Assembly (NCBI GenBank): GCA_024641305.1
Contig: JAHEDI010000003.1
Location: 48,889-112,888, forward strand
From: a bacterium
GTDB taxonomy: Bacteria; Actinomycetota; Acidimicrobiia; Spongiisociales; JAENVV01
Direction: 5' to 3'
DNA length: 64,000 nt
Shown: piece after piece, positions 15,224-35,141 of the stretch
How the letters are laid out: every line of letters begins with the position of its first letter
How positions within the stretch are numbered: position 1 is the stretch's first letter
The notes under the pieces: generated by a model
What the model saw: only the letters and a program-made list of their open reading frames with translations
What the model was told of the DNA's origin: nothing
Databases searched by the model: none
Translations under genes and position numbers: made by a program

Positions 15224-16324
15224 ATGGCTGTTGCTGGATCCGTTGTGCTCTTCTCGCTCGGTCTCGCATTGGTGGCCGCCACGCTCGTCTCAGCGGTCCG
15301 CACCGTCGTCTTGCCTCGAGCTGCCCAATCGTGGCTCACCGGGATGCTTTTCGGAGCTTCCGGCAAGCTCTTCCGCCTACTCGCCAACGAACGACGGTCC
15401 TTTGAGGCGCGGGATCGGGTCATGGCGTTGTTTGCGCCGATCACGTTGGTACTGCTGCCGGTGGTGTGGGTCATTGTGGTCGGAACGGGCTACACCGCGA
15501 TGTTCAAGGCGATCGGGGCGATAACCTGGACCGAGGCGTTCCGCATCTCTGGTTCGAGCCTGCTGACACTCGGATTTGCCCCGGTTGATACCAACCTCGA
15601 ACACGTCGTGGCTTTCTCTGAAGCCATTCTCGGACTGGGTTTGGTTGCGTTGCTCATCACTTTCTTACCGTCGATCTACTCCTCGTTTGCTCGCCGGGAA
15701 GCCATGGTCACGCTGATGGAAGTGCGCGGTGGAACTCCACCAAGTGCCACCCAGTTTCTCCTCCGGTTTCATCGAATCGGATGGATGGACCAATTGGATC
15801 AGGAGTGGGCGGCGTGGGAGCAGTGGTTTGCCGAATTGCAGGAAGCCCACACGACATTCCCTGCGTTGAATTTTCTCCGTTCCCCACAGATGGACCTTTC
15901 GTGGATAACGGCCGCCGGTGCTGCCCTCGACGCGGCCGCGCTCGCGCAGACATCGTTGGTCAGGGAGCCGAGTCCGGCAGGACGGGTGGTGATCCGAGCC
16001 GGGTTCATAACACTGCGACGGATCGCCGATGTATTCGGGATCGTCTACGACCCCGACCCCCAGTACGGCGACCCGATTGCTCTGACATTTGCCGAATTCG
16101 ATGAGGCGCTCGACGCGCTGGCTGAAGATGGAATCGCGGTGGTCGACGACCGCCAGCAGGCGTGGAGGGACTTTTCGGGTTGGCGGGTCAACTATGAAGC
16201 AGTGCTCTTGGAGATTGCCGAACTGATTATGGCGCCGTATGCGCCCTGGGTTTCGGATCGCTCAAGCGTGCAGTTGCATCCGCCTAAGCGGATTCGCTGG
16301 GGACCTCGTGGATCTCGATCGTGA
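15224..16324 (+). CDS. Hypothetical integral membrane protein
   Basis: Long ORF with several hydrophobic segments in its N-terminal half. No recognisable domain. Confidence 0.4.
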   Translation: MAVAGSVVLFSLGLALVAATLVSAVRTVVLPRAAQSWLTGMLFGASGKLFRLLANERRSFEARDRVMALFAPITLVLLPVVWVIVVGTGYTAMFKAIGAITWTEAFRISGSSLLTLGFAPVDTNLEHVVAFSEAILGLGLVALLITFLPSIYSSFARREAMVTLMEVRGGTPPSATQFLLRFHRIGWMDQLDQEWAAWEQWFAELQEAHTTFPALNFLRSPQMDLSWITAAGAALDAAALAQTSLVREPSPAGRVVIRAGFITLRRIADVFGIVYDPDPQYGDPIALTFAEFDEALDALAEDGIAVVDDRQQAWRDFSGWRVNYEAVLLEIAELIMAPYAPWVSDRSSVQLHPPKRIRWGPRGSRS

Positions 16325-17552
16325 GCTTTTCGAAGGCGCTCCGCAAGGCGCGTTCGACGTGCTCGGGGCGCTCGGCCGTGGCGAATAGGAACCCGAGGTA
16401 GCGGTTGCCTTCCGGCCATGCCTCGACCCGTTCACCCACGGGAATGCTGATCGTAAGCTTGGTTATTCCGGGAACCTTGAGCGCGGCGTGCGTCCCGTGG
16501 ACTCCCCGGAAAAAGCCAGTGGTGGCGGTAGGCAGCATCATGACTCCGGAGGCGGCGTGATATGGGCGAATCTCGGGAATTCTCATACCGAGGGCTGCCC
16601 GCAAAAGCATGGTTTCGAGGCTTGTCCCGAGGAGGCCAAATTGCAGGGCTTGGCCGCACAAGCCACCGATTGGTCTGGCGGCTACTTCAATGACTCGAAC
16701 GAAGGATCCATCGATTCGGAGCTCGGCATGGATTGGGCCTTCGGTTAGACCGATCGCATCAATCGCTCTCTGGGTGGTGGCGGCCACCTCGGTAAGTACT
16801 TCTGGCTCGTGCCGGGAGGGGGTTATGTACAGAGACTCCTCGAAGAACGGCCCGTCAAGCGGATCGGGCTTGTCCAGGACCGCAAGTATCTTCAGGCAGC
16901 CGCCGACGAGCACGCCCTCGACGGCTACTTCTTGGCCGGGTACGAACCGTTCAAAGAGCAGTGGTTCGTTGGGGTTGCGGCCCGCGCAAGCCAGGATTCG
17001 TCGGATTCGATCCACCGCTTCTGGTGCTTCTTGCGGTGAGTCGATCCGGATGACCCCTTGAGAAGCCGCCAGACTCAGGGGTTTGATGACCAGTGGCATG
17101 GTCAATTCGGAAGCCGCCTGAGCCGGATCTGCCGACCGTTCGACGACCACGAAGGGCGGCTGGGCCACCTTGGAGCGCAACGCCCGACGAAGCATCGCCT
17201 TCTCCCGTGTGATGGCAACTGCCGCAGGATGGTTATGCGCGAGTTTGAGGTCGTGGGCGGCGTAGGCGGCCACCAGCACGCCTTGATCGTCGACTGGCAC
17301 GATCGCCGCGAATGGGGTGGTGGCATGCCGCTCGACGATGTCGGCCGCCGCTTGAATCGGATTGCCAAGATCGACGAGAAGGAAGTCGGCGTCGTCAAGA
17401 AGCAACTGGCGGCGCTCCGACACGACCGTGAGTCGAACTCCAAGGTCGCGGGCAGCTTCGAGGAAGGCTGTGGCCCGATACGTCTCCGAGGGAAGGATGA
17501 TCGCGACGCGTTGCACCTCTCCATATTTGCCGGTTTGTGTGACGACCGCCAA
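16284..17552 (-). CDS. ATP-grasp domain protein of unknown specificity
   Basis: ATP-grasp fold features (VIKPLSLAASQGV, a Gly-rich loop, an EV..RP..G metal-binding region). Its 3' end overlaps the convergent gene by 41 nt. Confidence 0.55.
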   Translation of the reverse strand: MAVVTQTGKYGEVQRVAIILPSETYRATAFLEAARDLGVRLTVVSERRQLLLDDADFLLVDLGNPIQAAADIVERHATTPFAAIVPVDDQGVLVAAYAAHDLKLAHNHPAAVAITREKAMLRRALRSKVAQPPFVVVERSADPAQAASELTMPLVIKPLSLAASQGVIRIDSPQEAPEAVDRIRRILACAGRNPNEPLLFERFVPGQEVAVEGVLVGGCLKILAVLDKPDPLDGPFFEESLYITPSRHEPEVLTEVAATTQRAIDAIGLTEGPIHAELRIDGSFVRVIEVAARPIGGLCGQALQFGLLGTSLETMLLRAALGMRIPEIRPYHAASGVMMLPTATTGFFRGVHGTHAALKVPGITKLTISIPVGERVEAWPEGNRYLGFLFATAERPEHVERALRSAFEKLTIEIHEVPSESA

Positions 17553-17592: not shown

Positions 17593-18222
17593 TTGACTAC
17601 TCAACCGCTTTCGATAACCGATGATGCGGTCGGCAAGATTATCGAGATTCGCGATGGCGAAGAGTCAGAACACGAACTTGCCCTATTTATCGAGATTACT
17701 GGTATCAAAGGCCCGCAGTTTGTGTACGAGCTGAGCTTCATGCCGGTGTCTGACCAAAAAGAAACCGACGAGCGCTACACGTACGGATTGCTGTCGGTTC
17801 TCATTCCGAAGAAAGATGTCGCCAATCTCGATGGCGCCGTCCTGTCGCTCGGGTCTGACCCGGCCAACCCGGCATTGGCGATCGACAACCCCAATCAGCC
17901 ATCCACGCCGTTGATGAGCGGGGCAGGCATCCCCGGGGATTTGGTTGGCCCGCTCGCCGACAAGGTCCAGCAAGTGCTGGAGCGTCAGGTCAATCCTTCT
18001 ATCGCCGGACACGGGGGAGCGGCTCGTCTCGTTTCTGTCGATGACCGTACTGCCTATCTCGAGCTTATGGGTGGCTGTCAGGGCTGTGGCATGGCATCCG
18101 TAACCCTCAAGCAGGGGATTGAGCGGATCCTTAAAGATGCGATTCCCGAGCTGCTGGCGGTGGAGGACGTGACGGATCATGCTTCTGGCACTGACCCCTA
18201 CTACGAGGCCGCCAAAAAGTAA
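17593..18222 (+). CDS. NfuA-like Fe-S cluster assembly protein (IscA/HesB-fold N-domain plus Nfu C-domain)
   Basis: C-terminal Nfu motif LMGGCQGCGMASVTLKQGIE. Start placed at an in-frame TTG, because using the upstream ATG would make two divergent genes overlap at their 5' ends. The start is uncertain. Confidence 0.55.
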   Translation: MTTQPLSITDDAVGKIIEIRDGEESEHELALFIEITGIKGPQFVYELSFMPVSDQKETDERYTYGLLSVLIPKKDVANLDGAVLSLGSDPANPALAIDNPNQPSTPLMSGAGIPGDLVGPLADKVQQVLERQVNPSIAGHGGAARLVSVDDRTAYLELMGGCQGCGMASVTLKQGIERILKDAIPELLAVEDVTDHASGTDPYYEAAKK

Positions 18223-18728: not shown

Positions 18729-19178
18729 CTAGGCGTCTGTGTGGGCTTTGATGATGTGTTGTCGGCTCAGCCACGTTAAGACCGAACCGGTCTGGAGAGC
18801 GTGCCAGGCGAAATCGCCGTTGAGTGCATCTGAGATTCGGTCACCCATTCCGGCCGGAATGCGTAGCTGGCCTTGGAAGATATGACCGCCGGTGGTTTCG
18901 ATCCGGGCAGGCACGCTGCTAACCAGGTTCTTGGCACCGGCGGAGGTTGCCGAAACTTCGGTTCCGACGATGTGATGGCGTCCGACGAGGAAGAACCGAC
19001 CAGCCTGGTCGTGCATCGGCAACATCGGGCTTGATGAACGTATCAAATCCAACACGGTCTCATGGCCACTGTGCGTGGCTGAGAACTCTGCAAGGAAGAG
19101 CGTGCCGCGAACGACAGTGGAGTTGGTCAGGTACAGGGAAGCAGGGGTCTCAAACTTGGCGACCCGGTAGTCGTTCAT
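18729..19178 (-). CDS. Hypothetical protein co-transcribed with pilT
   Basis: 149-aa ORF whose ATG overlaps the pilT stop (ATGA). No recognised domain. Confidence 0.4.
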   Translation of the reverse strand: MNDYRVAKFETPASLYLTNSTVVRGTLFLAEFSATHSGHETVLDLIRSSSPMLPMHDQAGRFFLVGRHHIVGTEVSATSAGAKNLVSSVPARIETTGGHIFQGQLRIPAGMGDRISDALNGDFAWHALQTGSVLTWLSRQHIIKAHTDA

Positions 19179-20254
19179 GCCTGTTTGGCTGGATGGTCGG
19201 GCGGCAAGAACGGAAGGATCAGCTCGGTATTGATGGCACGTTCGAAGGCGGTTTCCGGGTCGATGCGCTTGGCCGTTAGAAGCTCAAGAATGGCGTGGTC
19301 GAGTGTTTGCATGCCTCCTGACCGCCCGGTTTGCATCAACGAGGGAATCTGGAAAGTCTTTCCCTCGCGGATCAGGTTGGCGATCGCCGGGGTGCAGATC
19401 ATGATCTCAAGAGCGGCTACTCGGCCCGGTGTGTCGACGGTCCGAAACAGCGTTTGTGCAACGACAGCCTTGAGTGAGTCCGCCAGTGTTGAGCGTATTT
19501 GCTCCTGCTCATCGGCGGGAAACACCTCGATGATCCGATCCACCGTCTTGGCCGCGTTATTGGTGTGAAGCGTGCCGAAAACCAGGTGGCCGGTGGCGGC
19601 AGCTTCGATGGCAAGGCGAATGGTTTCAAGGTCGCGCATTTCGCCAACCAGAATGATGTCCGGGTCTTCGCGCAGCGCCGCCCTGAGTGCGGCTGAGAAC
19701 GAACGGGTATGGCTGCCGACCTCCCGATGGTTGACGAGAGCCATCCGGCTTTTGTGGACGAATTCGACCGGGTCCTCAATCGTCAGGATGTGATCGTTTC
19801 TGGTCTTGTTCGCCTCGTCGATAATGGCTGCCAACGTGGTGGATTTGCCAGATCCAGTTGGGCCGGTGACGAGCACGAGGCCCTTGTGGAGTTGGGCCAG
19901 GTTTGTGACCTGACGGGGAAGATTCAGCTGCTCGCAGGTGAGGATGTCTTCGGGGATGAGACGGAACACGGCCGCTGCTCCGCTCTTTTGTACAAAAAGG
20001 TTGGCCCGGAACCGGGCTAGACCGGGCACCTGGTACCCAAAATCGACGTCACCGCTCTCCTCGAAGGACGCCCAGAGCTCCGGTGGCGTGATTTCGCGCA
20101 GCAAAGCTCTGACCGTCTGGTCATTGAGCCGTTCGGACTTGACCCGAACCAGGTTTCCGTGGATTCGCATGATCGGAACCTGGCCGGCGACCAGGTGAAG
20201 GTCCGACCCACCTTGTTGATGGAGCCCCCGAAAGAGCGGATCAAGTTTGGCCAT
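19175..20254 (-). CDS. pilT: Type IV pilus twitching-motility ATPase PilT
   Basis: Walker A GPTGSGKST, Asp box, Walker B DPDIILVGEMRD, His box, and the PilT-specific AIRNLIRE-like motif (AIANLIREGK). Confidence 0.85.
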   Translation of the reverse strand: MAKLDPLFRGLHQQGGSDLHLVAGQVPIMRIHGNLVRVKSERLNDQTVRALLREITPPELWASFEESGDVDFGYQVPGLARFRANLFVQKSGAAAVFRLIPEDILTCEQLNLPRQVTNLAQLHKGLVLVTGPTGSGKSTTLAAIIDEANKTRNDHILTIEDPVEFVHKSRMALVNHREVGSHTRSFSAALRAALREDPDIILVGEMRDLETIRLAIEAAATGHLVFGTLHTNNAAKTVDRIIEVFPADEQEQIRSTLADSLKAVVAQTLFRTVDTPGRVAALEIMICTPAIANLIREGKTFQIPSLMQTGRSGGMQTLDHAILELLTAKRIDPETAFERAINTELILPFLPPDHPAKQA

Positions 20255-22367: not shown

Positions 22368-25139
22368 TCACGGGTGTTGCTCGAGGACTTCCAGGATGGT
22401 TTCGCCATAGCTCTCCGCCTTGGTCGAGCCAATCCCCGGGCAGGTGAGAAGCTCCTCAATCGTTGTAGGTCGTCTGGCTGCGATGCCAATGAGGTGTTTG
22501 TCGGAAAGGACGATGTAGGCGGGAACGTTCTGCGCTCTGGCCGTTTCGGCCCTCCAGCTCTTGAGGGATTCGACAATGGCTGGGTTCGCTTCGTGGACCG
22601 GACGGGCAAGGGGTGCAGAAATTGATCCAACCCGTACTCGCTCCCGCCAGGGCACCGTCAACCGGGCTCCTGTCGAGAGCTCGATGATGGCTCCGTCGTC
22701 GTCGAATGCGGTAACCGTGCCGTCGTAGCCTCCCCAGCGGAGGCGATCGCCCAGCCCAGGTGCGATCCCCCCGGTTGCCGGCGGGGTGGGTCGGTCAGGT
22801 CGAGAGCTGACTGTCTTCTTTGCGTTGCGCGGGGCGGTGCCGGAGAGCTCGGCGATGAATGGCGAGGGTCGGCTCCGATCGCCTACTACGGCCACCGATT
22901 CGATGCCCCGGGTTATGGCCACATGGAATACCCGCCGTTCCTCTTCCAGATCTTCGGCCAATTGATGAGGTAGAACCCCGTCGGTGACGCTGTAGACCAG
23001 AACGCACGGCCATTCGGCGCCTTTGACCTTGTGAATTGTCGACAACATCACGCCGGTCGGTGACCCTTCGGCTGCGAGGAGGGTCTCGAGTTTGGATTGG
23101 AAGGCTGCCGGGTTCGGGTAAAGGTCGGCCAGTTGGCTGATGGCGTCCAGGTCGTCTTTGTGGCCGGATCGATCAGGGGTCGTGCGCGACTGATCCAACA
23201 GCATGGCCGCGCGATCAAGGCCGACGGTCTTGCGTACCGCTTCTACGACGTCGCTGGTTGAACCTCGGGCGGCATTGGCAACCGTTTCGAGATCGGCGAC
23301 GAATTCGTCGAATCGATCCTGGAAGCGCTCCTCAAGCCGTCCTGAGGCGGCCGTCAGTTCTTCAAGGCTCCAGCGTCCCCGGCTTGAAATCAGCGCGGAC
23401 GCCACTCGTGTCATGCGACGAGGCGGCCGACCGAGCACCTCGCGCAGGTCGTCGCGGCTCATGACCTCCGGTGACAAACCCATCCGCAGGTATGCCAGGA
23501 ACGCCCGCACCGCGGTGCGGCGGAGAAAGTCAGCCCCCACCGGAGCGGTGTGGGGGACGCCTCGTTCGGTCAGGATTGCCTGGACCGGAAGGAGTGCGTG
23601 ATTCACCCGGCTGAGGACCGCGATGTCTCTCGGACGATGATCGGTCAGCCAACCGGTCACGATGTCGGCCGCCACCGTCCCCTGGCTATCGGAAGGGGCC
23701 GCCTCAACTCGCAAGTCAGGTGGTGAAATCGGGTCGGGTGAGACGATGTTCTTGGGGATACGCCGTGCGTTATAGCTGAGGAGATGTTTGGCGGCTTCGA
23801 CCACAACCGCCGGGGACCGGTAATTGGTTTCAAGCGCGTAGTGGCCGGCGCCGGGGAAGAGATCGTCGAAACCGATGAGAAAAGCGGGGTCGGCGCCGGC
23901 GTAGCCGTAGATGACCTGGTCGTCGTCGCCGACGCCGAATACTTGGTAGGCGGGAGCGGCCACCAATCGGAGCAAAAGAAGGTACGCCGGTGTGAGGTCT
24001 TGGAACTCGTCAACGAGCAGATGACGGGCAGAACTTCGAACCCGATCACGCAGATCGGGGTTCGTGAGGAGTAGTTGGATGGCTTGATAAATCTGTTCGT
24101 CGAAGTCGACCGCCCCTCGGTCGGCCAAGCGGCGCCGGTACTGCTCATAGACCTCGACGAAGCCCGGCACGTCATCGCGCTGATCTTCCACGATTGCCGG
24201 GTCGATCAGCCCGATTCTGACACTTGTCAAGGCTTCCAGGTAGGGGGCAGTGATATCACGATTCTGCGCTGGTTGAGCTGGAATCAGCGGAGCCAGGATG
24301 GACCGTTGCTCGCGCTCGTTGAGGACGGGAACGTCACCTTTGGATGCCCGAACAATGGCATAGGCCAACGAGTGAATGGTTCGTATGGAGGAGTCGACCC
24401 CTTCGATCCGCTCGGTCATCTCCCTGGCGGCCTTGGCGTTGTAGGCGACCGCCGTGATGAGATGTGGCTCGATCCACCGGTCGCGCACGAGATGCGTGAT
24501 CCGGGCGGTGAGAGTACGGGTCTTCCCCGAACCGGCCGGGGCGATGATCCGTGCTGGGCCGGCAGCATGATTGACGGCCGCCGATTGATCGTCTGCCAGG
24601 TCGGTATCGGATGCTCGTGGATGAGCAGGTGACGTGTTGAGTGTTCCCAGTTCAATTGACTCTCGATGAACAAGAAGATCGGCGATGTCTACTGGCCCTC
24701 GTGGTCCTCCGTCGCACCAGGCGGCGCGGCCATCAGGCAACAGGATGTCGGTGACCGAGCCGGGTTTGGCACCGAGTCGTTCGGCTTTTCGGCTGTGCCA
24801 CCAGATCGGATCGGATTCAGTTCCCCGACCGTCGTAATTGTTCGCCCAGACGAGAAACTGGAGGCGTTCCTTCGGGAATTCGAAATCCGGAGGGAGTGTG
24901 TATGGCTCGGCGTCGGTGATTTCTGTTTGGCGCAGCGTCTCTGCGGGAACCTGTAGTTCGACGATGAGAGCTTCACGTTGGGTCCAGGCTTTTGCCAGGC
25001 GAGCGATGGTTTTGGCTGGGGCGGCCATGACGGCCTCATCAAGGATCACTCGATCACAATCTGACCAGGGTGCTGGAGCGACGGCAGCGGAGGTAGTAAC
25101 GATGCCGCGGCCCAAACTTGCCGGTGGAAGAGGATTCAT
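22368..25139 (-). CDS. uvrD2: UvrD2-type ATP-dependent DNA helicase (UvrD core plus C-terminal HRDC, with an extra N-terminal domain)
   Basis: Walker A IIAPAGSGKTRTL and UvrD helicase motifs. The C-terminal LKSWRAETARAQNVPAYIVLSDKHLIGIAARRPTTIEELLTCPGIGSTKAESYG matches the UvrD2 HRDC tail. Start trimmed to the internal ATG because the upstream part of the track ORF overlaps a separate small membrane ORF. Confidence 0.8.
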   Translation of the reverse strand: MNPLPPASLGRGIVTTSAAVAPAPWSDCDRVILDEAVMAAPAKTIARLAKAWTQREALIVELQVPAETLRQTEITDAEPYTLPPDFEFPKERLQFLVWANNYDGRGTESDPIWWHSRKAERLGAKPGSVTDILLPDGRAAWCDGGPRGPVDIADLLVHRESIELGTLNTSPAHPRASDTDLADDQSAAVNHAAGPARIIAPAGSGKTRTLTARITHLVRDRWIEPHLITAVAYNAKAAREMTERIEGVDSSIRTIHSLAYAIVRASKGDVPVLNEREQRSILAPLIPAQPAQNRDITAPYLEALTSVRIGLIDPAIVEDQRDDVPGFVEVYEQYRRRLADRGAVDFDEQIYQAIQLLLTNPDLRDRVRSSARHLLVDEFQDLTPAYLLLLRLVAAPAYQVFGVGDDDQVIYGYAGADPAFLIGFDDLFPGAGHYALETNYRSPAVVVEAAKHLLSYNARRIPKNIVSPDPISPPDLRVEAAPSDSQGTVAADIVTGWLTDHRPRDIAVLSRVNHALLPVQAILTERGVPHTAPVGADFLRRTAVRAFLAYLRMGLSPEVMSRDDLREVLGRPPRRMTRVASALISSRGRWSLEELTAASGRLEERFQDRFDEFVADLETVANAARGSTSDVVEAVRKTVGLDRAAMLLDQSRTTPDRSGHKDDLDAISQLADLYPNPAAFQSKLETLLAAEGSPTGVMLSTIHKVKGAEWPCVLVYSVTDGVLPHQLAEDLEEERRVFHVAITRGIESVAVVGDRSRPSPFIAELSGTAPRNAKKTVSSRPDRPTPPATGGIAPGLGDRLRWGGYDGTVTAFDDDGAIIELSTGARLTVPWRERVRVGSISAPLARPVHEANPAIVESLKSWRAETARAQNVPAYIVLSDKHLIGIAARRPTTIEELLTCPGIGSTKAESYGETILEVLEQHP

Positions 25140-25177
25140 GAGTGCCAGGCTAGGCCGTACCTGTGACACAAAAGCGG

Positions 25178-25453
25178 TCAGGCGGTCCAACCCAGCAAGC
25201 GGTCTCCCAGGTAGACCAGGAGCATCCACGTCGCCAGGGCAAGGGCCGGAGAGGCTGCGTAGAACAGGCTCTTGCGGTGCCACCACCTGGTGGCAACTCC
25301 CAACCAAACCGCCCCGATCACCCACATTACGACCACTCCCAGGATCGGAGCAACCAGGCCCGAGACGCCGTAGAACACGAGGGCGGGTACCCAAAGGGCC
25401 GTACCGACGACCCGGTTGATGATGAGCAGCCAATCGGGTTGTGATTCGGTCAT
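25178..25453 (-). CDS. Small hypothetical membrane protein (2-3 TM)
   Basis: 91-aa ORF with strongly hydrophobic segments. It lies immediately upstream of uvrD2. Confidence 0.4.
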   Translation of the reverse strand: MTESQPDWLLIINRVVGTALWVPALVFYGVSGLVAPILGVVVMWVIGAVWLGVATRWWHRKSLFYAASPALALATWMLLVYLGDRLLGWTA

Positions 25454-25782
25454 GTCAATCGTTCGTCTGGTCCGACGGTGGGGAGTTCGGACGGCATCAA
25501 TGGATTCGGTCGGTTGTCATGATACTGACGCAGTTGCCCGGCATCACACGTCGAACAGAGGTTGATGGATCGCACTCCCACAACCGACAATTGGGTTCCC
25601 CGGCCCTTTTCGACAATGGCGAGCGGCACGGCCTGCACATCGTCGCCTCCACAGCGATCACAACGAGTGGACAGATCCCTCGTCCATCGGTGCCCACAAG
25701 TCTCACAGCGGAGGTGGATGGATCCATCGTGCCGTTCTCCCGCAAGGGCGTTCGTTTCACCACAGAGGCAGGAGATGTGCAC
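25450..25782 (-). CDS. Zinc-ribbon protein (four Cys pairs)
   Basis: CxC...CETC...CDRC...CSTC arrangement in 110 aa. Its stop overlaps the start of the downstream membrane ORF. Confidence 0.45.
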   Translation of the reverse strand: MHISCLCGETNALAGERHDGSIHLRCETCGHRWTRDLSTRCDRCGGDDVQAVPLAIVEKGRGTQLSVVGVRSINLCSTCDAGQLRQYHDNRPNPLMPSELPTVGPDERLT

Positions 25783-25823
25783 GCTAAAGCCCCGTGAACG
25801 TCATACGCGTGATGATCGGGACC

Positions 25824-26168
25824 TCATCGTGCCCTGATCGAAGCCCGGAACCTACGCCACGTGGTGACTACCTCATCGGCATCAAACATGTCGGATCCGG
25901 ACTCGGCGTTCAGATTGGCAACGGTGGTGCGGACGCTGGTTTCGGAGGTCAATCCCCAGACTCCGGCCAGCTTGCGCTCCAATTCGGCCGACCGACTCCG
26001 CCCGGTATCCTCGTCTGCGAGCCGCTTGATGAAATCCCGTGCCCACCAATCCGGGTCGTACTGGCGGTTGAGGCTTTCGATCGGTTGGCCGGCGCCAGGG
26101 AGGTTGTCGAAATCACCGCGCTCTTGGGCGAGTCGGATTTGCTCCTCGACAAAATCGAATCCCATCAC
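25824..26168 (-). CDS. DUF1992 (DnaJC28-like) domain protein
   Basis: N-terminal EEQIRLAQERGDFDNLPGAGQPI matches the DUF1992 signature. Confidence 0.6.
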   Translation of the reverse strand: MMGFDFVEEQIRLAQERGDFDNLPGAGQPIESLNRQYDPDWWARDFIKRLADEDTGRSRSAELERKLAGVWGLTSETSVRTTVANLNAESGSDMFDADEVVTTWRRFRASIRAR

Positions 26169-26396
26169 AGTGTCCTATCGAACCAGTCGATCAGAAGTTT
26201 AGCCACTACTGCCCGGTCGGATGGGCTGCCGCTGACTCAAGGCAGATAGGTCCGTGGAACACGTAAAACAGTCGGCCATGACCCCGTCAGGCCTGATGTC
26301 ACGATCAGGGTGATGCCAGATCCCGACGAGTTCGGCTCCCCGCGAACCGGTGAAGGATATGGCTTCAGTCATGAAGCCACCATGGAGCGATAGGCT

Positions 26397-27722
26397 ATGT
26401 GGGTGAGAGCGCTTCTAATTTCCACATACGAGATGGGCCATCAGCCGCTTCACGTGGCCTCGCCGGCCGCTGTTCTCCGGAACGGTGGGCATGACGTCCG
26501 AGCCCAGGACCTCGCCATCGATGCGCTGGACTGGGTCGATGTCGAATGGGCTCAGGCGGTGGCGATTTCCGTGCCAATGCACACCGCCATGCGTCTCGCG
26601 GTCGAGGTGGCTGGCCGGATCAAGGCTCGTTTCCCGGATCTCCCGGTCTGTCTTTATGGTCTGTACGCCGGCATCGGCAAGGATCGAACCTTCGGCCATG
26701 TGGCCGACCGCATCATCATCGGGGAATATGAGGCTGCCCTGTCGTCGTGGGTGGACACCCTTGATAGAGGAATCACCACAGACCTGGTCAAATCTACTTT
26801 TGTCCTCCCGGCCCGTGATTTGCTACCGCCGCTCAGCCGTTACGCCAGGCTCGAGGGATCAGGCGATGATCGGATCGTCGGCTATGTCGAAGCCAGTCAC
26901 GGGTGCCGCCATCGATGTGGGCATTGCCCGATTCCTGCCATCTATGACGGTCTCTTCCGGGTGGTGGGGGCCGACGTGGTGCTCGATGACATCGCTCAAC
27001 TCGTTGACCTGGGTGCCGAGCACGTCACGTTCGGTGACCCCGATTTTTTCAACGGCCCCCATCATGCCATGCGGATCCTCGAAGAGAGCCACCAGCGATT
27101 CCCGAGCCTGACGTACGACATCACGGTCAAGGTCGAGCACATCCTCAAACATCAGGACCTATGGGGTCGGGTGGCGGCGGCCGGTGTCGTGTTTGCCGTG
27201 TCAGCGTTCGAATCGACCAATGATGGTGTTCTGACCATTCTTGACAAGGGGCATACCCGCAATGACATGGCAGTCGCCGTAGAAATCATGCGCAGGGCCG
27301 GGATGGACATCCGGCCTTCGTGGCTGCCGTTCACCCCGTGGACGACGGTCGAGGACATTGTCGATATGTTCCGATTCGTCGCGTCATACGATTTGCCGAC
27401 CGACCCGATCCAATTCACGATCAAATTGCTGATTCCCGAAGGATCCGTCCTGCTGATGAGGTCGGAGCTGGAAGCTCAACTTGGCCCGTATGACGCCGAG
27501 CGACTCACCTACGACTGGACGGCGATTGATCCGCGAACGGAGAAGCTCGCCGATCGCTACGCCGAACATGTCGAACACTCTACGCGGTCAAACACTCTTC
27601 CGAATGCGATCATCCTCGATCTATTTGCCATGGCGCTCGAAGCGGCTGGATTGCCACCTGAATCCCTCGATATAGGGAGTTTTGAAGGGAGGCCACGGCT
27701 CACTGAGCCGTGGTTCTGCTGA
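26397..27722 (+). CDS. B12-binding-domain radical SAM protein
   Basis: CRHRCGHC (CxxxCxxC) radical SAM cluster motif preceded by a B12-binding-like N-terminal domain. 441 aa. Confidence 0.75.
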   Translation: MWVRALLISTYEMGHQPLHVASPAAVLRNGGHDVRAQDLAIDALDWVDVEWAQAVAISVPMHTAMRLAVEVAGRIKARFPDLPVCLYGLYAGIGKDRTFGHVADRIIIGEYEAALSSWVDTLDRGITTDLVKSTFVLPARDLLPPLSRYARLEGSGDDRIVGYVEASHGCRHRCGHCPIPAIYDGLFRVVGADVVLDDIAQLVDLGAEHVTFGDPDFFNGPHHAMRILEESHQRFPSLTYDITVKVEHILKHQDLWGRVAAAGVVFAVSAFESTNDGVLTILDKGHTRNDMAVAVEIMRRAGMDIRPSWLPFTPWTTVEDIVDMFRFVASYDLPTDPIQFTIKLLIPEGSVLLMRSELEAQLGPYDAERLTYDWTAIDPRTEKLADRYAEHVEHSTRSNTLPNAIILDLFAMALEAAGLPPESLDIGSFEGRPRLTEPWFC

Positions 27723-27848
27723 GCAGAGCCTTCCGCGGACCAGGTCGGTTCGCTCGGTCACTAGTCACTTAGAGTGATTTCAATATGTCCCTTTCGCTCC
27801 CTCGTAGGCTTGCCTAGGGTCAGTGTCGAGCTATTGGGGGCTTCCGAA

Positions 27849-28670
27849 ATGAAACGCATCATGGTTATGCTCGTCCTCGCTGGACTCGTCATAGCCCTGG
27901 CAGTTCCTGCCAGTGCCTCGTCGGATCGAGCGATGTGGGTTTGGGACGGACCGGTCGAAGGGGTTTCCGACTTTGCGTCCGCACATGGCGTAACCGATGT
28001 GTATCTAAGCGCACCACCTGGTTTCTCACGAGATGCCAGGTATGCGTCGTTTATCGACGACGCTCGGACCCGCGGATTGCGGGTCTGGGCTGTCGCCGGT
28101 GACGCCTCCTGGGCTCAGAATCGCAACGCCTGGGTTGGTTGGACGGATGAGGTGGTTGGCGTCGGCTTGTTCGATGGAATCGTCGCCGACGTCGAGCCGT
28201 ACCTGCTGAGCGACTGGTCGGATTCGAGGAAACGATCCCGGCTCATCTCCTCTTATCTCAAGAATCTGACTGCTGCCCGACAGGCCGCCGGCTCCACCGA
28301 GATGCTGGTTGCCGTTCCATTTTGGTGGGACCTTGCCGAGTATCAAACGAAAGGTCGGACCCTGGTGGAACGGACCATGGCTGCCGCTGATGGGGTAGTG
28401 GTCATGGCCTATCGGGACCATGCAGACGGCGTCGACGGGATCATTGATCTGGCGGGCTTTGAAGTGGCTCTCGGGTCGCAGATGTCAAAGCGGGTCGTCG
28501 TGGGAGTCGAGACCGGTCCGGCATCTTCGGACAAGGTCACCTTCTGGGAGGAAGGATCCACCGCCATGGCGGCCGAATTGACCAGAGTGGAGGCGGCTTT
28601 CGGGGGCGAAACCGGATACGGCGGGGTGGCCATCCACCACTATGGCTCGTACTCGACCATGGCTCGCTAG
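27849..28670 (+). CDS. Secreted protein of unknown function (possible glycoside-hydrolase-like fold)
   Basis: Signal peptide MKRIMVMLVLAGLVIALAVPASA, then MWVWDGP... Start trimmed to the signal-peptide M. Confidence 0.5.
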   Translation: MKRIMVMLVLAGLVIALAVPASASSDRAMWVWDGPVEGVSDFASAHGVTDVYLSAPPGFSRDARYASFIDDARTRGLRVWAVAGDASWAQNRNAWVGWTDEVVGVGLFDGIVADVEPYLLSDWSDSRKRSRLISSYLKNLTAARQAAGSTEMLVAVPFWWDLAEYQTKGRTLVERTMAAADGVVVMAYRDHADGVDGIIDLAGFEVALGSQMSKRVVVGVETGPASSDKVTFWEEGSTAMAAELTRVEAAFGGETGYGGVAIHHYGSYSTMAR

Positions 28671-31593: not shown

Positions 31594-32049
31594 ATGCGTT
31601 TGGTTGTTCAGCGGGTTCGTCATGCGTCGGTGGTGGTCGGCGGTCGTGAGGTCGGATCGATTGGCACCGGTTTACTGGTTCTGGCCGGTACCACGCACGG
31701 CGATTCGGAAACAGACGTGCGGGTTCTGGCGGAAAAGTTGGTCAACCTCCGGGTGTTTCCCGACGCGGACGGAAAGATGAACCGATCACTGCTTGATATC
31801 GGGGGACAGCTCCTACTGGTAAGCCAGTTCACCTTGTACGGTTCGGTCATGCGCGGTAATCGGCCGTCCTTCACCGGAGCCGGAGACCCCGTCGAGGCGG
31901 CTCGCCTTCTCGACCGGCTCGAGACTGAGATACAAGATCGTGGGGTTCACGTGGCCGGTGGAGAATTTGGCGCTTCGATGGAGGTTTCTTTGCTCAACGA
32001 TGGGCCGGTGACGTTGATTCTGGAATCCGTGTCGGGCAAACTCCGCTAG
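31594..32049 (+). CDS. dtd: D-aminoacyl-tRNA deacylase
   Basis: MRLVVQRV...SQFTLY...NGPVT(L)ILE hallmarks of Dtd. 151 aa. Confidence 0.85.
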   Translation: MRLVVQRVRHASVVVGGREVGSIGTGLLVLAGTTHGDSETDVRVLAEKLVNLRVFPDADGKMNRSLLDIGGQLLLVSQFTLYGSVMRGNRPSFTGAGDPVEAARLLDRLETEIQDRGVHVAGGEFGASMEVSLLNDGPVTLILESVSGKLR

Positions 32050-35000
32050 GACTCCAACCAGGCTTTCCCTTCCGGGCAGAAGCGGAGGAAATCGCAATTG
32101 GAACAGGCACTGGACGGGATCGGGTCGAATACCTGAGCGCCGATACCTTCGGCGATGCCCGACAACCGGCTTCTGGCGGCCTCCATCCAGGCGTCATCGA
32201 TGTGTTCGGTTCGCTCGGTGAGGCTCCCGCCCCCCAGGTAGGCAAACGTGGCGATCATCTGGTCCGGTCGGGTGGGTCCGAGGGACCCCCTGTCGACGGC
32301 CACTGCATAGGCCTGGAGCTGCACGTCCATCGCCGGGTTCTCAGAGGGTCTACCCGACTTGAAGTCGACGATTTCCCATGTCCCCGGTTGTTCCTCATAT
32401 ACGGCATCGATCCGGCCACGGATTCGCATACCGTCATGGACAAACTCGAACGGCGCTTCGATAAGGCGGGCGGCCAGGGTCGAAAATCGTGACTGTTCGA
32501 ACACGGTGAACGCGCTTGCAACATCCGACGGACCTGCGTCGGGAGCGTCATAGAAGTCGTCGGTGACCTCCTCGAACGGCACCGCGCCTCGTTGGAACAG
32601 TTCGATCTTGCGATGAACGTCAACTCCGCGCCGAGCTGCGGCTGATGGGCGACGGGGAAGGCGATCGACCTCGGACCAGTAGTACCGTTTTGGGCAGCTG
32701 GCGTAGGTAACCAGAGACGTGACGGATGTGGCGAGCGGGGCGGGAATTGGTGGACCGACCGGGTCGTCTGGCAAGTCGAAGAGTATCTGCTGAAAGTCGG
32801 TCACGGCCTGATCGTAGGTCGATCGCACGCCGAGTTGATCAGCCTGATGGCTGGCCCAACCAGGGTCAGAAAGGGTGGCACGCAATGCGCCATCCCACCC
32901 ATCGGCGAATGTCGGATCGGGCGATCCTGCTAGCGGTGACCGGCGGAGCGATTCCGGTCGAACCGGGTCCTCAACCGTCCCGAGATCGACGACATCGGGC
33001 TGTTCGGCGGCGATTTCAAAGAGCCGGCTTGGCTTTCCTGGTGTCTTGCGCACTTCGGTAGTCCCGTGCCAGGTTGCCCCGGTCAGCGTCAGCCATCGGC
33101 GTGCCCTGGTTACTGCTACGTAGGCGATACGCCACTCTTGGTCCAGGTCGCGCTGGCGCAACAGGTCGCGTCGTTCTGCCTCAGTCATGTCCGCGCTAAT
33201 TGGGGGCAGCGTATGTCGGTCAAGTCGCAGTTCGTACGGGAGCATGTATGGGTGACGAAATGGATCGTCCGAGACCCCTGAGGAACTTGGGAAGTTCTTG
33301 TCGTATAAGGCGGGTATGAACACCGCGTCCCATTCGAGGCCTTTGGAGCGATGAACTGTCAGCAGAGCGACAGCATCTTCTCCTGATAGCCGGGCCGTAT
33401 CGAGTTCTTCGGTCTGCTCTTCAACCATCACGGTGAGGTAGTCGACGAACGCCCGCAACGAGGGGCGTCCTTCAAGCGGGCTCCATTCTTCGGCCAGATC
33501 GAGGAAGCGGTAGAGATTCAGTCGCGCCGACTGGCGGGCGGCGGCCGGCATAGCGGCCACCTCCGGCCAGGCTCCGGTCCTTGACAGGATCTGGCGCACC
33601 AGCTCAATCAGGTTGACGCCCTGGGCGGCCTCGAGCAGGCTCCGGTAGGTGATGTGCAGGTGTACCAGGGCGTCAATCGTGCGGTCGTCGAGTTGATCGA
33701 CCTGGAGGTGATCGTCCTGACCCAGGGTTCCGGCATCGTCGCCCTGCGTCGACGTAAGCTGGTCGAGGGCCTCGACCATCGAGCGGCCGAACTCAGGTTG
33801 GTTCTTGACCCATCGCGACAATGGTTTGACGTCGTGCATACCGAGTCGATAGCGGCTGCCCATCGCAATACGGATGAAGGCCGGCTCGTCCGACGGGTTG
33901 TCGAGCAGACGCAACCAGGCGAAAACATCGGCTACCTCAGGTATGCCAAGAAGTCCGCCCAGGTTGGCCACCTCCACGGGGATCCCGAACTCCTCGAGAG
34001 CGCCTCGGACGGCCTCAATGTCCTTGTTCTTTCTGAAGAGAACAGCGATTTCCTTCCAGGCGATGCCCTGTTCCTCGTGCAGAGCGAGCACCTGTTCGGC
34101 GATGAAGTCCGCTTCATCGACGGCGTTGCCCTCCCAACGCACGCTGACCGCTGCCGGGCTCGTCTCGTCAAGCGCCCGTAGTGGGTCGGTGACTTCTCCG
34201 AGTTCCTCGCGTATTCGATTGGCCAGGTTCAAAATGGTTTGGCCGGATCGGCGATTGAGTGTCAATGGGTAGGTCGGGGCGGGTGACCCGTCAAGGTTGG
34301 GGAAGTGGTCGCCGAATCCCGAAAAGTTCGCCAGTGATGCGCCTCGCCACTCATAAATCGTCTGGTCGGCATCTCCAACGGCCGTGATCGGGAATCCGTC
34401 TCCGAACAGCTTACGGAGCAGTTCGCGTTGGGCGGGGTTGGTGTCCTGGTATTCGTCGAGATACACGGCGTCGTAACGACTGCGAATGCGAGCCGCCAGG
34501 TCCGGGTAGTCGCTGGTGAGTCGGTTGGCTCGAAAGATCAGGTCACCGAAATCGGCCACTCCTATGCGACGTTTTTCTTGCTCATACCGCTCGATAATGC
34601 CGAGGATCTCCAGTCGGGTCTCCCACAGCTCGTCGAGCTTGGATGGCATGAGCCCGGCCAGGTGGGAGGGTTCGGCCAGGTTGTCGGCGAGAGCGGCGGC
34701 GAGCCGGGCTGGACGGTCGAGGATCCCGCTCCACGTGATGTTCAGGTACCGGTAGGTACCGCCTTCCACGGCATCGTGGAAGAGCTGACGGGCGAACGTT
34801 GGTGTGATGAGCTGCGTGTCGCGCTCCACCCCTACGAGCGGCCCGAACTCACTGAGGATCTGATGGGCGAAACCGTGATAGGTATGGACCTCAACAGTGC
34901 GCGCCGGGTCGATACGATCGGCCAAAACGTCACGGACCCGGTCGGCGAGTTCGGCAGCGGCTTTGTTGGTAAACGTGATGCCCAGGATTCGTTCAGGATC

Positions 35001-35141
35001 TGCCCCAGAGTCGATGAGGTGAGCGATGCGATGGGCGAGCGTGGTTGTCTTGCCGGTTCCCGCCCCGGCAGCAATTCGCATGGGACCGATCGGGGCACCG
35101 ATGATCGCTGACTGCTCGTCGCTCGGTAGGAATGCGGTCAT
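32046..35141 (-). CDS. adnB: ATP-dependent helicase/nuclease subunit AdnB-like (UvrD helicase plus C-terminal RecB-type nuclease with Cys cluster)
   Basis: Walker A AGAGTGKTTTL, UvrD motifs, and a C-terminal PD-(D/E)xK region (DFKSG...QLQAY) with Cys residues (CPKRYYW...CSNCDFLRFCP). Its start overlaps the adnA stop (ATGA). Confidence 0.8.
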   Translation of the reverse strand: MTAFLPSDEQSAIIGAPIGPMRIAAGAGTGKTTTLAHRIAHLIDSGADPERILGITFTNKAAAELADRVRDVLADRIDPARTVEVHTYHGFAHQILSEFGPLVGVERDTQLITPTFARQLFHDAVEGGTYRYLNITWSGILDRPARLAAALADNLAEPSHLAGLMPSKLDELWETRLEILGIIERYEQEKRRIGVADFGDLIFRANRLTSDYPDLAARIRSRYDAVYLDEYQDTNPAQRELLRKLFGDGFPITAVGDADQTIYEWRGASLANFSGFGDHFPNLDGSPAPTYPLTLNRRSGQTILNLANRIREELGEVTDPLRALDETSPAAVSVRWEGNAVDEADFIAEQVLALHEEQGIAWKEIAVLFRKNKDIEAVRGALEEFGIPVEVANLGGLLGIPEVADVFAWLRLLDNPSDEPAFIRIAMGSRYRLGMHDVKPLSRWVKNQPEFGRSMVEALDQLTSTQGDDAGTLGQDDHLQVDQLDDRTIDALVHLHITYRSLLEAAQGVNLIELVRQILSRTGAWPEVAAMPAAARQSARLNLYRFLDLAEEWSPLEGRPSLRAFVDYLTVMVEEQTEELDTARLSGEDAVALLTVHRSKGLEWDAVFIPALYDKNFPSSSGVSDDPFRHPYMLPYELRLDRHTLPPISADMTEAERRDLLRQRDLDQEWRIAYVAVTRARRWLTLTGATWHGTTEVRKTPGKPSRLFEIAAEQPDVVDLGTVEDPVRPESLRRSPLAGSPDPTFADGWDGALRATLSDPGWASHQADQLGVRSTYDQAVTDFQQILFDLPDDPVGPPIPAPLATSVTSLVTYASCPKRYYWSEVDRLPRRPSAAARRGVDVHRKIELFQRGAVPFEEVTDDFYDAPDAGPSDVASAFTVFEQSRFSTLAARLIEAPFEFVHDGMRIRGRIDAVYEEQPGTWEIVDFKSGRPSENPAMDVQLQAYAVAVDRGSLGPTRPDQMIATFAYLGGGSLTERTEHIDDAWMEAARSRLSGIAEGIGAQVFDPIPSSACSNCDFLRFCPEGKAWLES

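Follow-up and report, generated by a model that had tools for sequence, protein, structure and literature searches.

An in-frame UGA codon and a SECIS-like hairpin in a CUAEP-tail radical SAM gene from a putative member of the Acidimicrobiia

Organization of the locus

The subject of this report is a radical S-adenosylmethionine (SAM) gene within a 64-kb stretch of DNA, referred to throughout as the window (the whole of the stretch analysed). Its features of interest are listed in Table 1. The gene had been taken to code for a 441-aa enzyme, but that is the length of the open reading frame (ORF) only up to a TGA codon, and the frame continues through the TGA to a true stop, a TAG at 27762–27764. 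We interpret the gene as a member of the CUAEP/CCAEP-tail radical SAM family in which the TGA is read as selenocysteine (Sec) by means of a downstream hairpin of the selenocysteine insertion sequence (SECIS) type, and put the probability of this at roughly 85%. The window appears to belong to the Acidimicrobiia, as judged from a 95%-identical locus (L005) and three further related loci (L006–L008). All five ORFs of the original prediction, namely this gene, a secreted protein gene 3′ of it and three small ORFs transcribed divergently, lie where they had been placed. The feature that defines the enzyme, an in-frame UGA with a CUAEP tail, had been overlooked.

Table 1. Positions of genes and RNA features in the window
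Feature	Position	Strand	Remarks
L-amino-acid-ligase-type ATP-grasp enzyme	16284..17552	-	ATP-grasp_4 and LAL_C2 domains; 50% identity (410 aa) with the partner that is conserved upstream in the family
NfuA-like Fe-S protein	17608..18222	+	Degenerate A-type domain, then a NifU C-terminal domain with CxxC; diverges from the ATP-grasp gene, the usual orientation of the pair in the family
UvrD2-like helicase	22368..25028	-	UvrD and HRDC domains (Pfam); 886 aa per gene finders (calls for identical contigs)
Small membrane protein, 91 aa	25178..25453	-	Three hydrophobic segments
Zinc-ribbon-like protein, 110 aa	25450..25782	-	Four Cys pairs, conserved
DJC28_CD (DUF1992) protein, 114 aa	25824..26168	-	Divergent from the radical SAM gene; PF09350, 1.3e-13
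CUAEP-tail radical SAM selenoprotein (predicted), full coding sequence	26397..27764	+	455 aa with Sec as residue 442; NF040546, read-through
Alternative longer hairpin	27718..27758	+	UGA in lower stem; minimum-energy fold in this clade, -21 kcal/mol; partly exclusive with the 7-bp stem
TGA codon, predicted Sec	27720..27722	+	U of CUAEP; in-frame AEPT.. conserved downstream
SECIS-like hairpin	27735..27753	+	GCGGACC-AGGUC-GGUUCGC; 7-bp stem, 5-nt loop, begins 12 nt past the UGA; homologue of the hairpin seen across the family
Secreted glycoside-hydrolase-like protein, 273 aa	27849..28670	+	Signal peptide; resembles PDB 10yv_A; neighbour through local synteny and no partner of the family as a whole

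The radical SAM gene and its family

The 441-aa truncated ORF matches the NCBIfam model NF040546, 'CUAEP/CCAEP-tail radical SAM (seleno)protein', with 507.3 bits (cut-off 500 bits, E=3.7e-152), and the second-best model is that of ArsL (NF040542), at 277.1 bits against a 450-bit cut-off. The CRHRCGHC motif and the radical SAM domain of the original prediction are both borne out. The domain matches PF04055 at 4.8e-11, and the motif is of the CX3CX2C type (C170, C174 and C177) and is invariant in 43 sequences. A database protein 79% identical to the window enzyme already bears the NF040546 family name at NCBI, and a sequence search of the PDB with the enzyme returned nothing at E≤0.01. This uncharacterised family is large: the database searched contains more than 7,995 of its proteins, and the genomes of GTDB species give at least 588 matches.

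Read through the TGA, the sequence at 27717–27731 is TGC TGA GCA GAG CCT (C-U-A-E-P), followed by SADQVGSLGH and the TAG. The predicted C-terminus of the protein is thus ...PRLTEPWF-Cys441-Sec442-AEPSADQVGSLGH.

Selenocysteine and cysteine codons at the end of the gene

Across the window, its identical contigs and the loci taken from genomes of GTDB species, WFC is followed by TGA in 64 cases, by TGC or TGT in 19, and by TAA or TAG in none. Among the best 120 homologues, 75 stop exactly at ...PRLTEPWFC and 45 run on as ...PRLTEPWFCCAEPTEGQ... (WFCC[AS]EP). Downstream of the TGA the peptide AEPTEGQFGPL is kept in frame with synonymous variation of the Ala codon, and a second stop lies 11–20 codons past the TGA across the UGA loci. 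The orthologues with a Cys codon translate the same AEPT.. peptide. Because Cys orthologues together with a conserved in-frame downstream peptide are the classical signature of Cys/Sec orthologue pairs, we interpret the TGA as a Sec codon.

One example in a cultured organism is Thermomicrobium roseum, where the RefSeq coding sequence halts at WFC and is followed by TGA-AEP; this entry is a truncated selenoprotein annotation. The locus (L084, 7932–9440) is on the megaplasmid of strain DSM 5159 (NC_011961.1, with the UGA form at 796591–798027), reads TGA-AEPLEDPSGP..., and has a hairpin GGACCC-GUC-GGGUCC at the family position. Its neighbours are genes for a pyridoxal-phosphate-dependent aminotransferase and a major facilitator superfamily transporter, and there is no ATP-grasp enzyme. 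A scan of the window for further TGA-interrupted ORFs gave none that were convincing.

A conserved hairpin downstream of the UGA

Hairpin statistics were obtained from an ungapped alignment of 49 distinct UGA loci, with 17 Cys loci as a contrast and 500 shuffles. The consensus in the UGA loci is GAGGGCC-AGUUC-GGCCCUC, in which a 5-nt loop closes a 7-bp stem that starts 12 nt past the UGA. The stem is 96.2% paired, pairing falls to 30–62% if the 3′ arm is slid, and none of the 500 shuffles reaches the observed values. Four of the seven stem pairs have changed on both sides (e.g. from G-C to A-U, C-G or U-A), and loop positions A26, G27 and T29 are invariant. Several of the compensations couple an amino-acid change in one arm with a synonymous change in the other, so that conservation of the protein does not account for them. 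Across the Cys loci these columns reach just 53.8% pairing, which is not significant relative to the shuffles.

The window copy of the 7-bp stem has a predicted energy of -9.9 kcal/mol alone and -11.3 kcal/mol in its local context. It overlaps the longer hairpin listed in Table 1, for which the 101-nt context has a z-score of -3.6, and either of the two may serve as the SECIS. An Rfam scan of the whole window at the gathering threshold gave no matches, a result that is uninformative on a SECIS.

These data bear on a second explanation, in which translation really does terminate at the TGA, after Cys441. What is conserved 3′ of it, sequence and hairpin alike, would then be a transcriptional or translational RNA signal such as a terminator or attenuator. 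Every public gene call ends the protein at WFC, including that of RefSeq for T. roseum, a stable hairpin does lie 3′ of the stop, and Sec machinery is not seen within the window, all as this explanation would have it. However, it does not account for the use of TGA at 64 of 64 stops, for the translation of the same peptide by the Cys-codon orthologues, or for a reading frame that is held past the TGA, with synonymous variation, as far as the second stop. The hairpin decays exactly in those loci that have a Cys codon, and there is no U-tract 3′ of it; a genuine stop thus seems very improbable. Promoter and terminator scans near the genes gave nothing over background.

Several observations do weigh against decoding of the UGA as Sec. 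The NF040546 score is only slightly over its cut-off, on a truncated sequence. The genes for tRNA-Sec, selA, selB and selD are found neither within the 64-kb window nor in the flanks of related loci, and a tRNA scan of the window and 60 related loci gave no tRNA-Sec; the capacity of the organism to decode Sec is assumed here from the family pattern. The longer hairpin is the minimum-energy fold in this clade and competes with the family 7-bp stem, in which L006 has an A·C mismatch. Experimental incorporation of selenium was not found in the searchable literature for any family member.

Fold of the enzyme and the question of cobalamin

An AlphaFold model of the enzyme without its 14-residue tail has a predicted local distance difference test (pLDDT) score of 93.7. 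Its best Foldseek match in the PDB is AprD4 (PDB 6fd2; E=8.6e-18, template modelling (TM) score 0.70), and the next are OxsB, TsrM, MgmA, MiaB, CysS and TokK. The presence of OxsB, TsrM, TokK and CysS among the top matches upholds the earlier description of a radical SAM enzyme with an N-terminal Rossmann-like domain as in B12-dependent members. Dependence on B12 does not follow. The match to the B12-binding Pfam family PF02310 scores 30.1 bits, under the 32.1-bit gathering cut-off, and AprD4 and ArsL homologues have Rossmann-like domains that do not bind cobalamin (PMC12931638, a 2026 review). Because of these two points the cofactor assignment is unsupported and 'B12-binding' is an architectural resemblance; the Rossmann-like N-terminal domain of the window enzyme probably does not bind cobalamin.

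The original prediction had further proposed that the protein encoded downstream is a secreted partner, which would handle the product of a cobalamin-dependent radical SAM methylase or rearrangement enzyme. The protein does appear to be secreted, since its N-terminus has a single hydrophobic segment followed by ASA and fits a signal peptide. The two genes are close and on the same strand, their pairing is retained in L005–L008, and the weak PF02310 match and the cobalamin enzymes among the Foldseek matches are in keeping with the proposal. However, L005–L008 are close relatives with enzymes 79–95% identical to that of the window (L005 being a 3-kb contig), and the secreted protein adjoins the enzyme only in these and in L002 and L004; it is absent from about 70 more distant loci. 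Co-occurrence across genomes thus places the pairing in close relatives only, and the occurrence of the radical SAM gene without the secreted neighbour in the more distant loci argues against a partnership. The secreted protein resembles a glycoside hydrolase (PDB 10yv_A, 'Putative GH97 from Cellulomonas fimi', E=4e-16). Gene calls and alignment place its most likely start at ATG 27849, so the gap from the true stop of the radical SAM gene is 84 nt, not the 50 nt that had been described, with no sign of translational coupling. With the low PF02310 score and cobalamin-free AprD4 and ArsL, a cobalamin enzyme with a secreted product-handling partner is hardly credible.

In L006–L008 the gene order is that of the window as far as the contigs reach. 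One flank of the enzyme has PilT, an M50 protease, Sir2, UvrD2 and the small ORFs; the other has the secreted protein, PlsB, Tag and Dtd. Neither the membrane ORF nor the zinc-ribbon ORF is in any of the approximately 70 more distant loci. Judging by these comparisons, the secreted, DJC28-like, zinc-ribbon and membrane genes sit beside the enzyme only through lineage-specific gene order.

Partners of the enzyme across the family

Clustering of neighbours from all ORFs was swamped by antisense ORFs of the high-GC genomes, and genes were instead picked by GC content at third codon positions (GC3). This pick is crude and misses some short or overlapping genes, and the ATP-grasp counts were redone by tblastn. 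An ATP-grasp enzyme of the L-amino-acid-ligase type (ATP-grasp_4 and LAL_C2), with distant matches to DdaF and BacD, is present nearby in 52 of the 65 loci with enough upstream sequence. Where there is such a gene it is directly upstream and on the same strand in 59 of 62 loci, typically overlapping the radical SAM start. An NfuA-like gene divergent from the ATP-grasp gene is found in 44–54 loci, and in 27 loci the radical SAM gene is followed closely, on the opposite strand, by a gene for a SaoD/DsrE-family protein (NF040913, 197 bits), a family linked to metal or organometallic systems.

In the window, the ATP-grasp gene and its divergent NfuA-like neighbour (TIGR03341 at 108.8 bits, below cut-off; PF01106 at 9.7e-22) are inverted relative to the radical SAM gene, and a single inversion in this Acidimicrobiia clade would explain their displacement.

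There is also a third family context. In L051, L057, L060, L078 and L079 (around 10001), the radical SAM gene comes after genes for a ~900-aa pyruvate-dehydrogenase-E1-like protein and a ~300-aa alpha/beta-hydrolase on the opposite strand; ABC-transporter genes are 3′ of it, and there is no ATP-grasp gene nearby.

Relationship to ArsL and possible chemistry

The closest characterised relative of the enzyme is ArsL of Pseudomonas amygdali, with 33% identity over 400 aa. ArsL is a CX3CX2C enzyme that cleaves SAM to a 3-amino-3-carboxypropyl (ACP) radical, which is attached to As(III) held by the cysteines of its C-terminal RCCLKC motif (bioRxiv 10.1101/2024.02.01.577332, 10.64898/2026.04.29.721666). 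The vicinal Cys-Cys of ArsL aligns with C441-U442. CU motifs are rare and concentrated in proteins handling heavy metals or organometallic compounds, with the NF040546 family listed as uncharacterised (Haft, bioRxiv 10.1101/2022.07.06.499078).

There is strong support for decoding of the UGA as Sec through the coding-region hairpin 12 nt downstream, which gives a C-terminal vicinal Cys441-Sec442 pair. By analogy with ArsL, this tail would present a soft atom (a metalloid, metal or chalcogen; e.g. Se or S) in the active site, where the atom would receive a radical from SAM, probably the 3-amino-3-carboxypropyl radical. The ATP-grasp ligase would then condense the amino-acid-like product. We offer this chemistry as a tentative suggestion. 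Arsenic itself is unlikely to be the atom concerned, because there are no ars genes in the window or in any locus.

A number of points count against such chemistry. The alignment to ArsL is weakly constrained at its terminus, and the tail offers two thiol or selenol ligands, not three. A tblastn search with seven ars proteins gave no matches in the window or 79 loci. Of the 65 loci in which the upstream sequence is long enough, 13 lack a nearby ATP-grasp gene, and the window copy is 8.8 kb from the radical SAM gene and on the other strand. The mechanistic part of the proposal rests on analogy only.

An alternative of similarly tentative standing is that the gene has the same identity but the enzyme uses canonical 5′-deoxyadenosyl radical chemistry, with the Cys-Sec pair as a redox-active or H-atom-donating tail and no metalloid site. 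Cys residues act as H-atom donors in several radical SAM enzymes, and in mammalian thioredoxin reductase the selenenylsulfide of the GCUG tail is the redox centre. The canonical CX3CX2C motif, the presence of only two chalcogen ligands in the tail and the failure to find metal- or arsenic-resistance genes nearby are all compatible with this role. It is less easily reconciled with a closest characterised relative that binds its substrate atom by a Cys-rich tail, with the metal or organometallic associations of the family of the SaoD/DsrE-like neighbour, or with the clustering of CU motifs in heavy-metal-handling proteins described by Haft.

It could also be that the enzyme is a true ArsL isozyme, with As(III) bound by its Cys-Sec tail and hydroxyarsinothricin as its product. 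Its identity with ArsL, the aligned vicinal pair and the rank of ArsL as second-best NCBIfam model are the points in common. However, the ArsL model score (277 bits) is far under the 450-bit cut-off, and the WFCUAEP tail has neither the RCCLKC motif nor a third Cys. None of arsM, arsQ, arsR, arsC, ACR3 and arsN is in the window or 79 loci, and the family has its hundreds of GTDB matches (at least 588) in housekeeping-like synteny. An ArsL isozyme therefore seems improbable.

Returning to the ArsL-like chemistry on a tail-held soft atom, we suggest more speculatively that the family could mark an undescribed and widespread pathway in Thermoleophilia, Acidimicrobiia, Nitriliruptoria and Thermomicrobia. 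ACP chemistry on the tail-held atom would form a C-Se, C-S or C-metalloid bond, and the new amino acid would be ligated into a dipeptide-like metabolite by the ATP-grasp partner, with the NfuA-like and SaoD/DsrE-like proteins as helpers. We consider a pathway of this scope doubtful at present.

Small ORFs and other features of the window

The three small ORFs between the radical SAM gene and uvrD2 are largely as they had been described: a protein with three hydrophobic segments, a zinc ribbon with four Cys pairs, and a DUF1992 protein, with a UvrD- and HRDC-containing helicase downstream. The overlapping stop and start described for them apply to the zinc-ribbon/membrane junction, where the two share 4 nt, but not to the DJC28-like ORF, which ends 41 nt before the zinc-ribbon start. 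The DJC28-like ORF scores 51.2 bits with PF09350 (gathering cut-off 27 bits), and the zinc ribbon is borderline for DUF6300 (PF19817), at 26.3 bits and just under the 27.8-bit cut-off. The membrane ORF matches no Pfam or NCBIfam family.

Conservation of these ORFs was assessed from the ratio of nonsynonymous to synonymous changes (pN/pS) between the window and three related Acidimicrobiia genomes (L006–L008). Overall values for the small ORFs and the secreted protein are 0.08–0.34 (DJC28-like, 0.27–0.34; zinc ribbon, 0.12–0.32; membrane ORF, 0.08–0.23; secreted protein, 0.13–0.25), and all four Cys pairs of the zinc ribbon are retained in the three genomes. Because they are under purifying selection, we regard all four as real genes, which answers the concern that the small ORFs might lack conservation.

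A search of 1.84 billion proteins at E≤1e-3 gave 148 representative clusters of zinc-ribbon relatives, a small family that, from its near-threshold DUF6300 match, is apparently mainly actinobacterial. In 46 of the 148 clusters the proteins are 200–320 aa long, with the four-Cys-pair domain, a Pro/Ala-rich linker and a further soluble domain. None of the 148 relatives has the zinc ribbon fused to a membrane domain like that of the 91-aa neighbour.

The longest ORF for the helicase (22368–25433, 1021 aa) starts 405 nt upstream of the called start at 25028 and so runs, in a different frame, across the 91-aa ORF. The conservation of the latter favours the shorter start (886 aa). At the stop of the 91-aa ORF there is a terminator-like hairpin with a T-rich tail (25176–25192, minus strand; a weak consensus match), which could end the DJC28/zinc-ribbon/membrane transcript before uvrD2.

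Two further regions of the window are worth recording. A PilT/PilU-family ATPase gene (18729–20254; TIGR01420, 463 bits) has a stop that overlaps the start of a 149-aa ORF matching no family, and both are conserved in L006–L008 (65–93% identity). At 32046–38107 there are two large tandem minus-strand ORFs of 1044 and 989 aa that overlap by 43 nt and have N-terminal P-loop (GxGKT) ATPase motifs; the first resembles UvrD/AddA-type helicases, and the two may be a helicase-nuclease pair.

Comparison with known systems

NF040546 is a curated NCBIfam family already recognised as one of selenoproteins, and one preprint mentions it; its function is uncharacterised. The searchable literature gave no account of covariation in the SECIS, of how Sec loci contrast with Cys loci, of the ATP-grasp/NfuA/SaoD-like neighbourhood, or of the truncation of the T. 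roseum RefSeq annotation. The window gene, its 100%-identical database copies and the T. roseum RefSeq entry are all truncated at the Sec codon and lose the residue most likely to be central to the chemistry. Among canonical radical SAM enzymes only one is known to generate an ACP radical and to form a carbon-metalloid bond, and this large family is its nearest relative. Its function is testable in vitro, with a Sec at the position of the substrate-binding Cys of ArsL, an amino-acid ligase as operon partner, and natural Cys forms that can be expressed in E. coli; the framing as a B12 enzyme with a secreted partner would misdirect such experiments.

The window enzyme shares with other NF040546 members the CX3CX2C motif, the ...PRLTEPWFC-U-AEP tail with UGA at the U position, and the downstream hairpin. 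It differs in the tail after AEP (SADQVGSL compared with TEGQFGPL in the family), in its hairpin, which has the compensating changes GCGGACC/GGUUCGC and a competing longer stem, and in being about 9 kb from the usual ATP-grasp and NfuA neighbours in this Acidimicrobiia clade.

Bacterial SECIS elements of the fdhF type are coding-region hairpins that closely follow the UGA, have an apical loop containing G and U, and are needed only where the codon is UGA. The family hairpin is similar in these respects, but has another sequence, with a 7-bp stem and an A-G-K-U-N loop placed from 12 nt past the UGA, and is a candidate SelB site.

AprD4 and the class-B-type enzymes OxsB, TsrM, TokK, CysS and MgmA (Foldseek 1e-17 to 1e-12 for these five) have the same two-domain architecture as the enzyme, whereas identity with them is only 13–16%, and the Cys-Sec tail has no counterpart in them. 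ArsL is alike in its Rossmann-like N-terminal domain, CX3CX2C core and C-terminal vicinal Cys pair, and probably in its lack of a cobalamin requirement. However, the ArsL tail is RCCLKC, with three Cys, compared with the Cys-Sec of FCUAEP. The window enzyme has an additional helical segment of about 45 residues before the tail, and ArsL sits in an ars operon, where the window enzyme does not. MerA and mammalian thioredoxin reductase have vicinal Cys-Cys or Cys-Sec residues on a flexible C-terminal tail, by which a soft metal or electrons reach an active site that is buried. The folds are unrelated, and the likeness to the predicted Cys441-Sec442 tail is one of analogy only.

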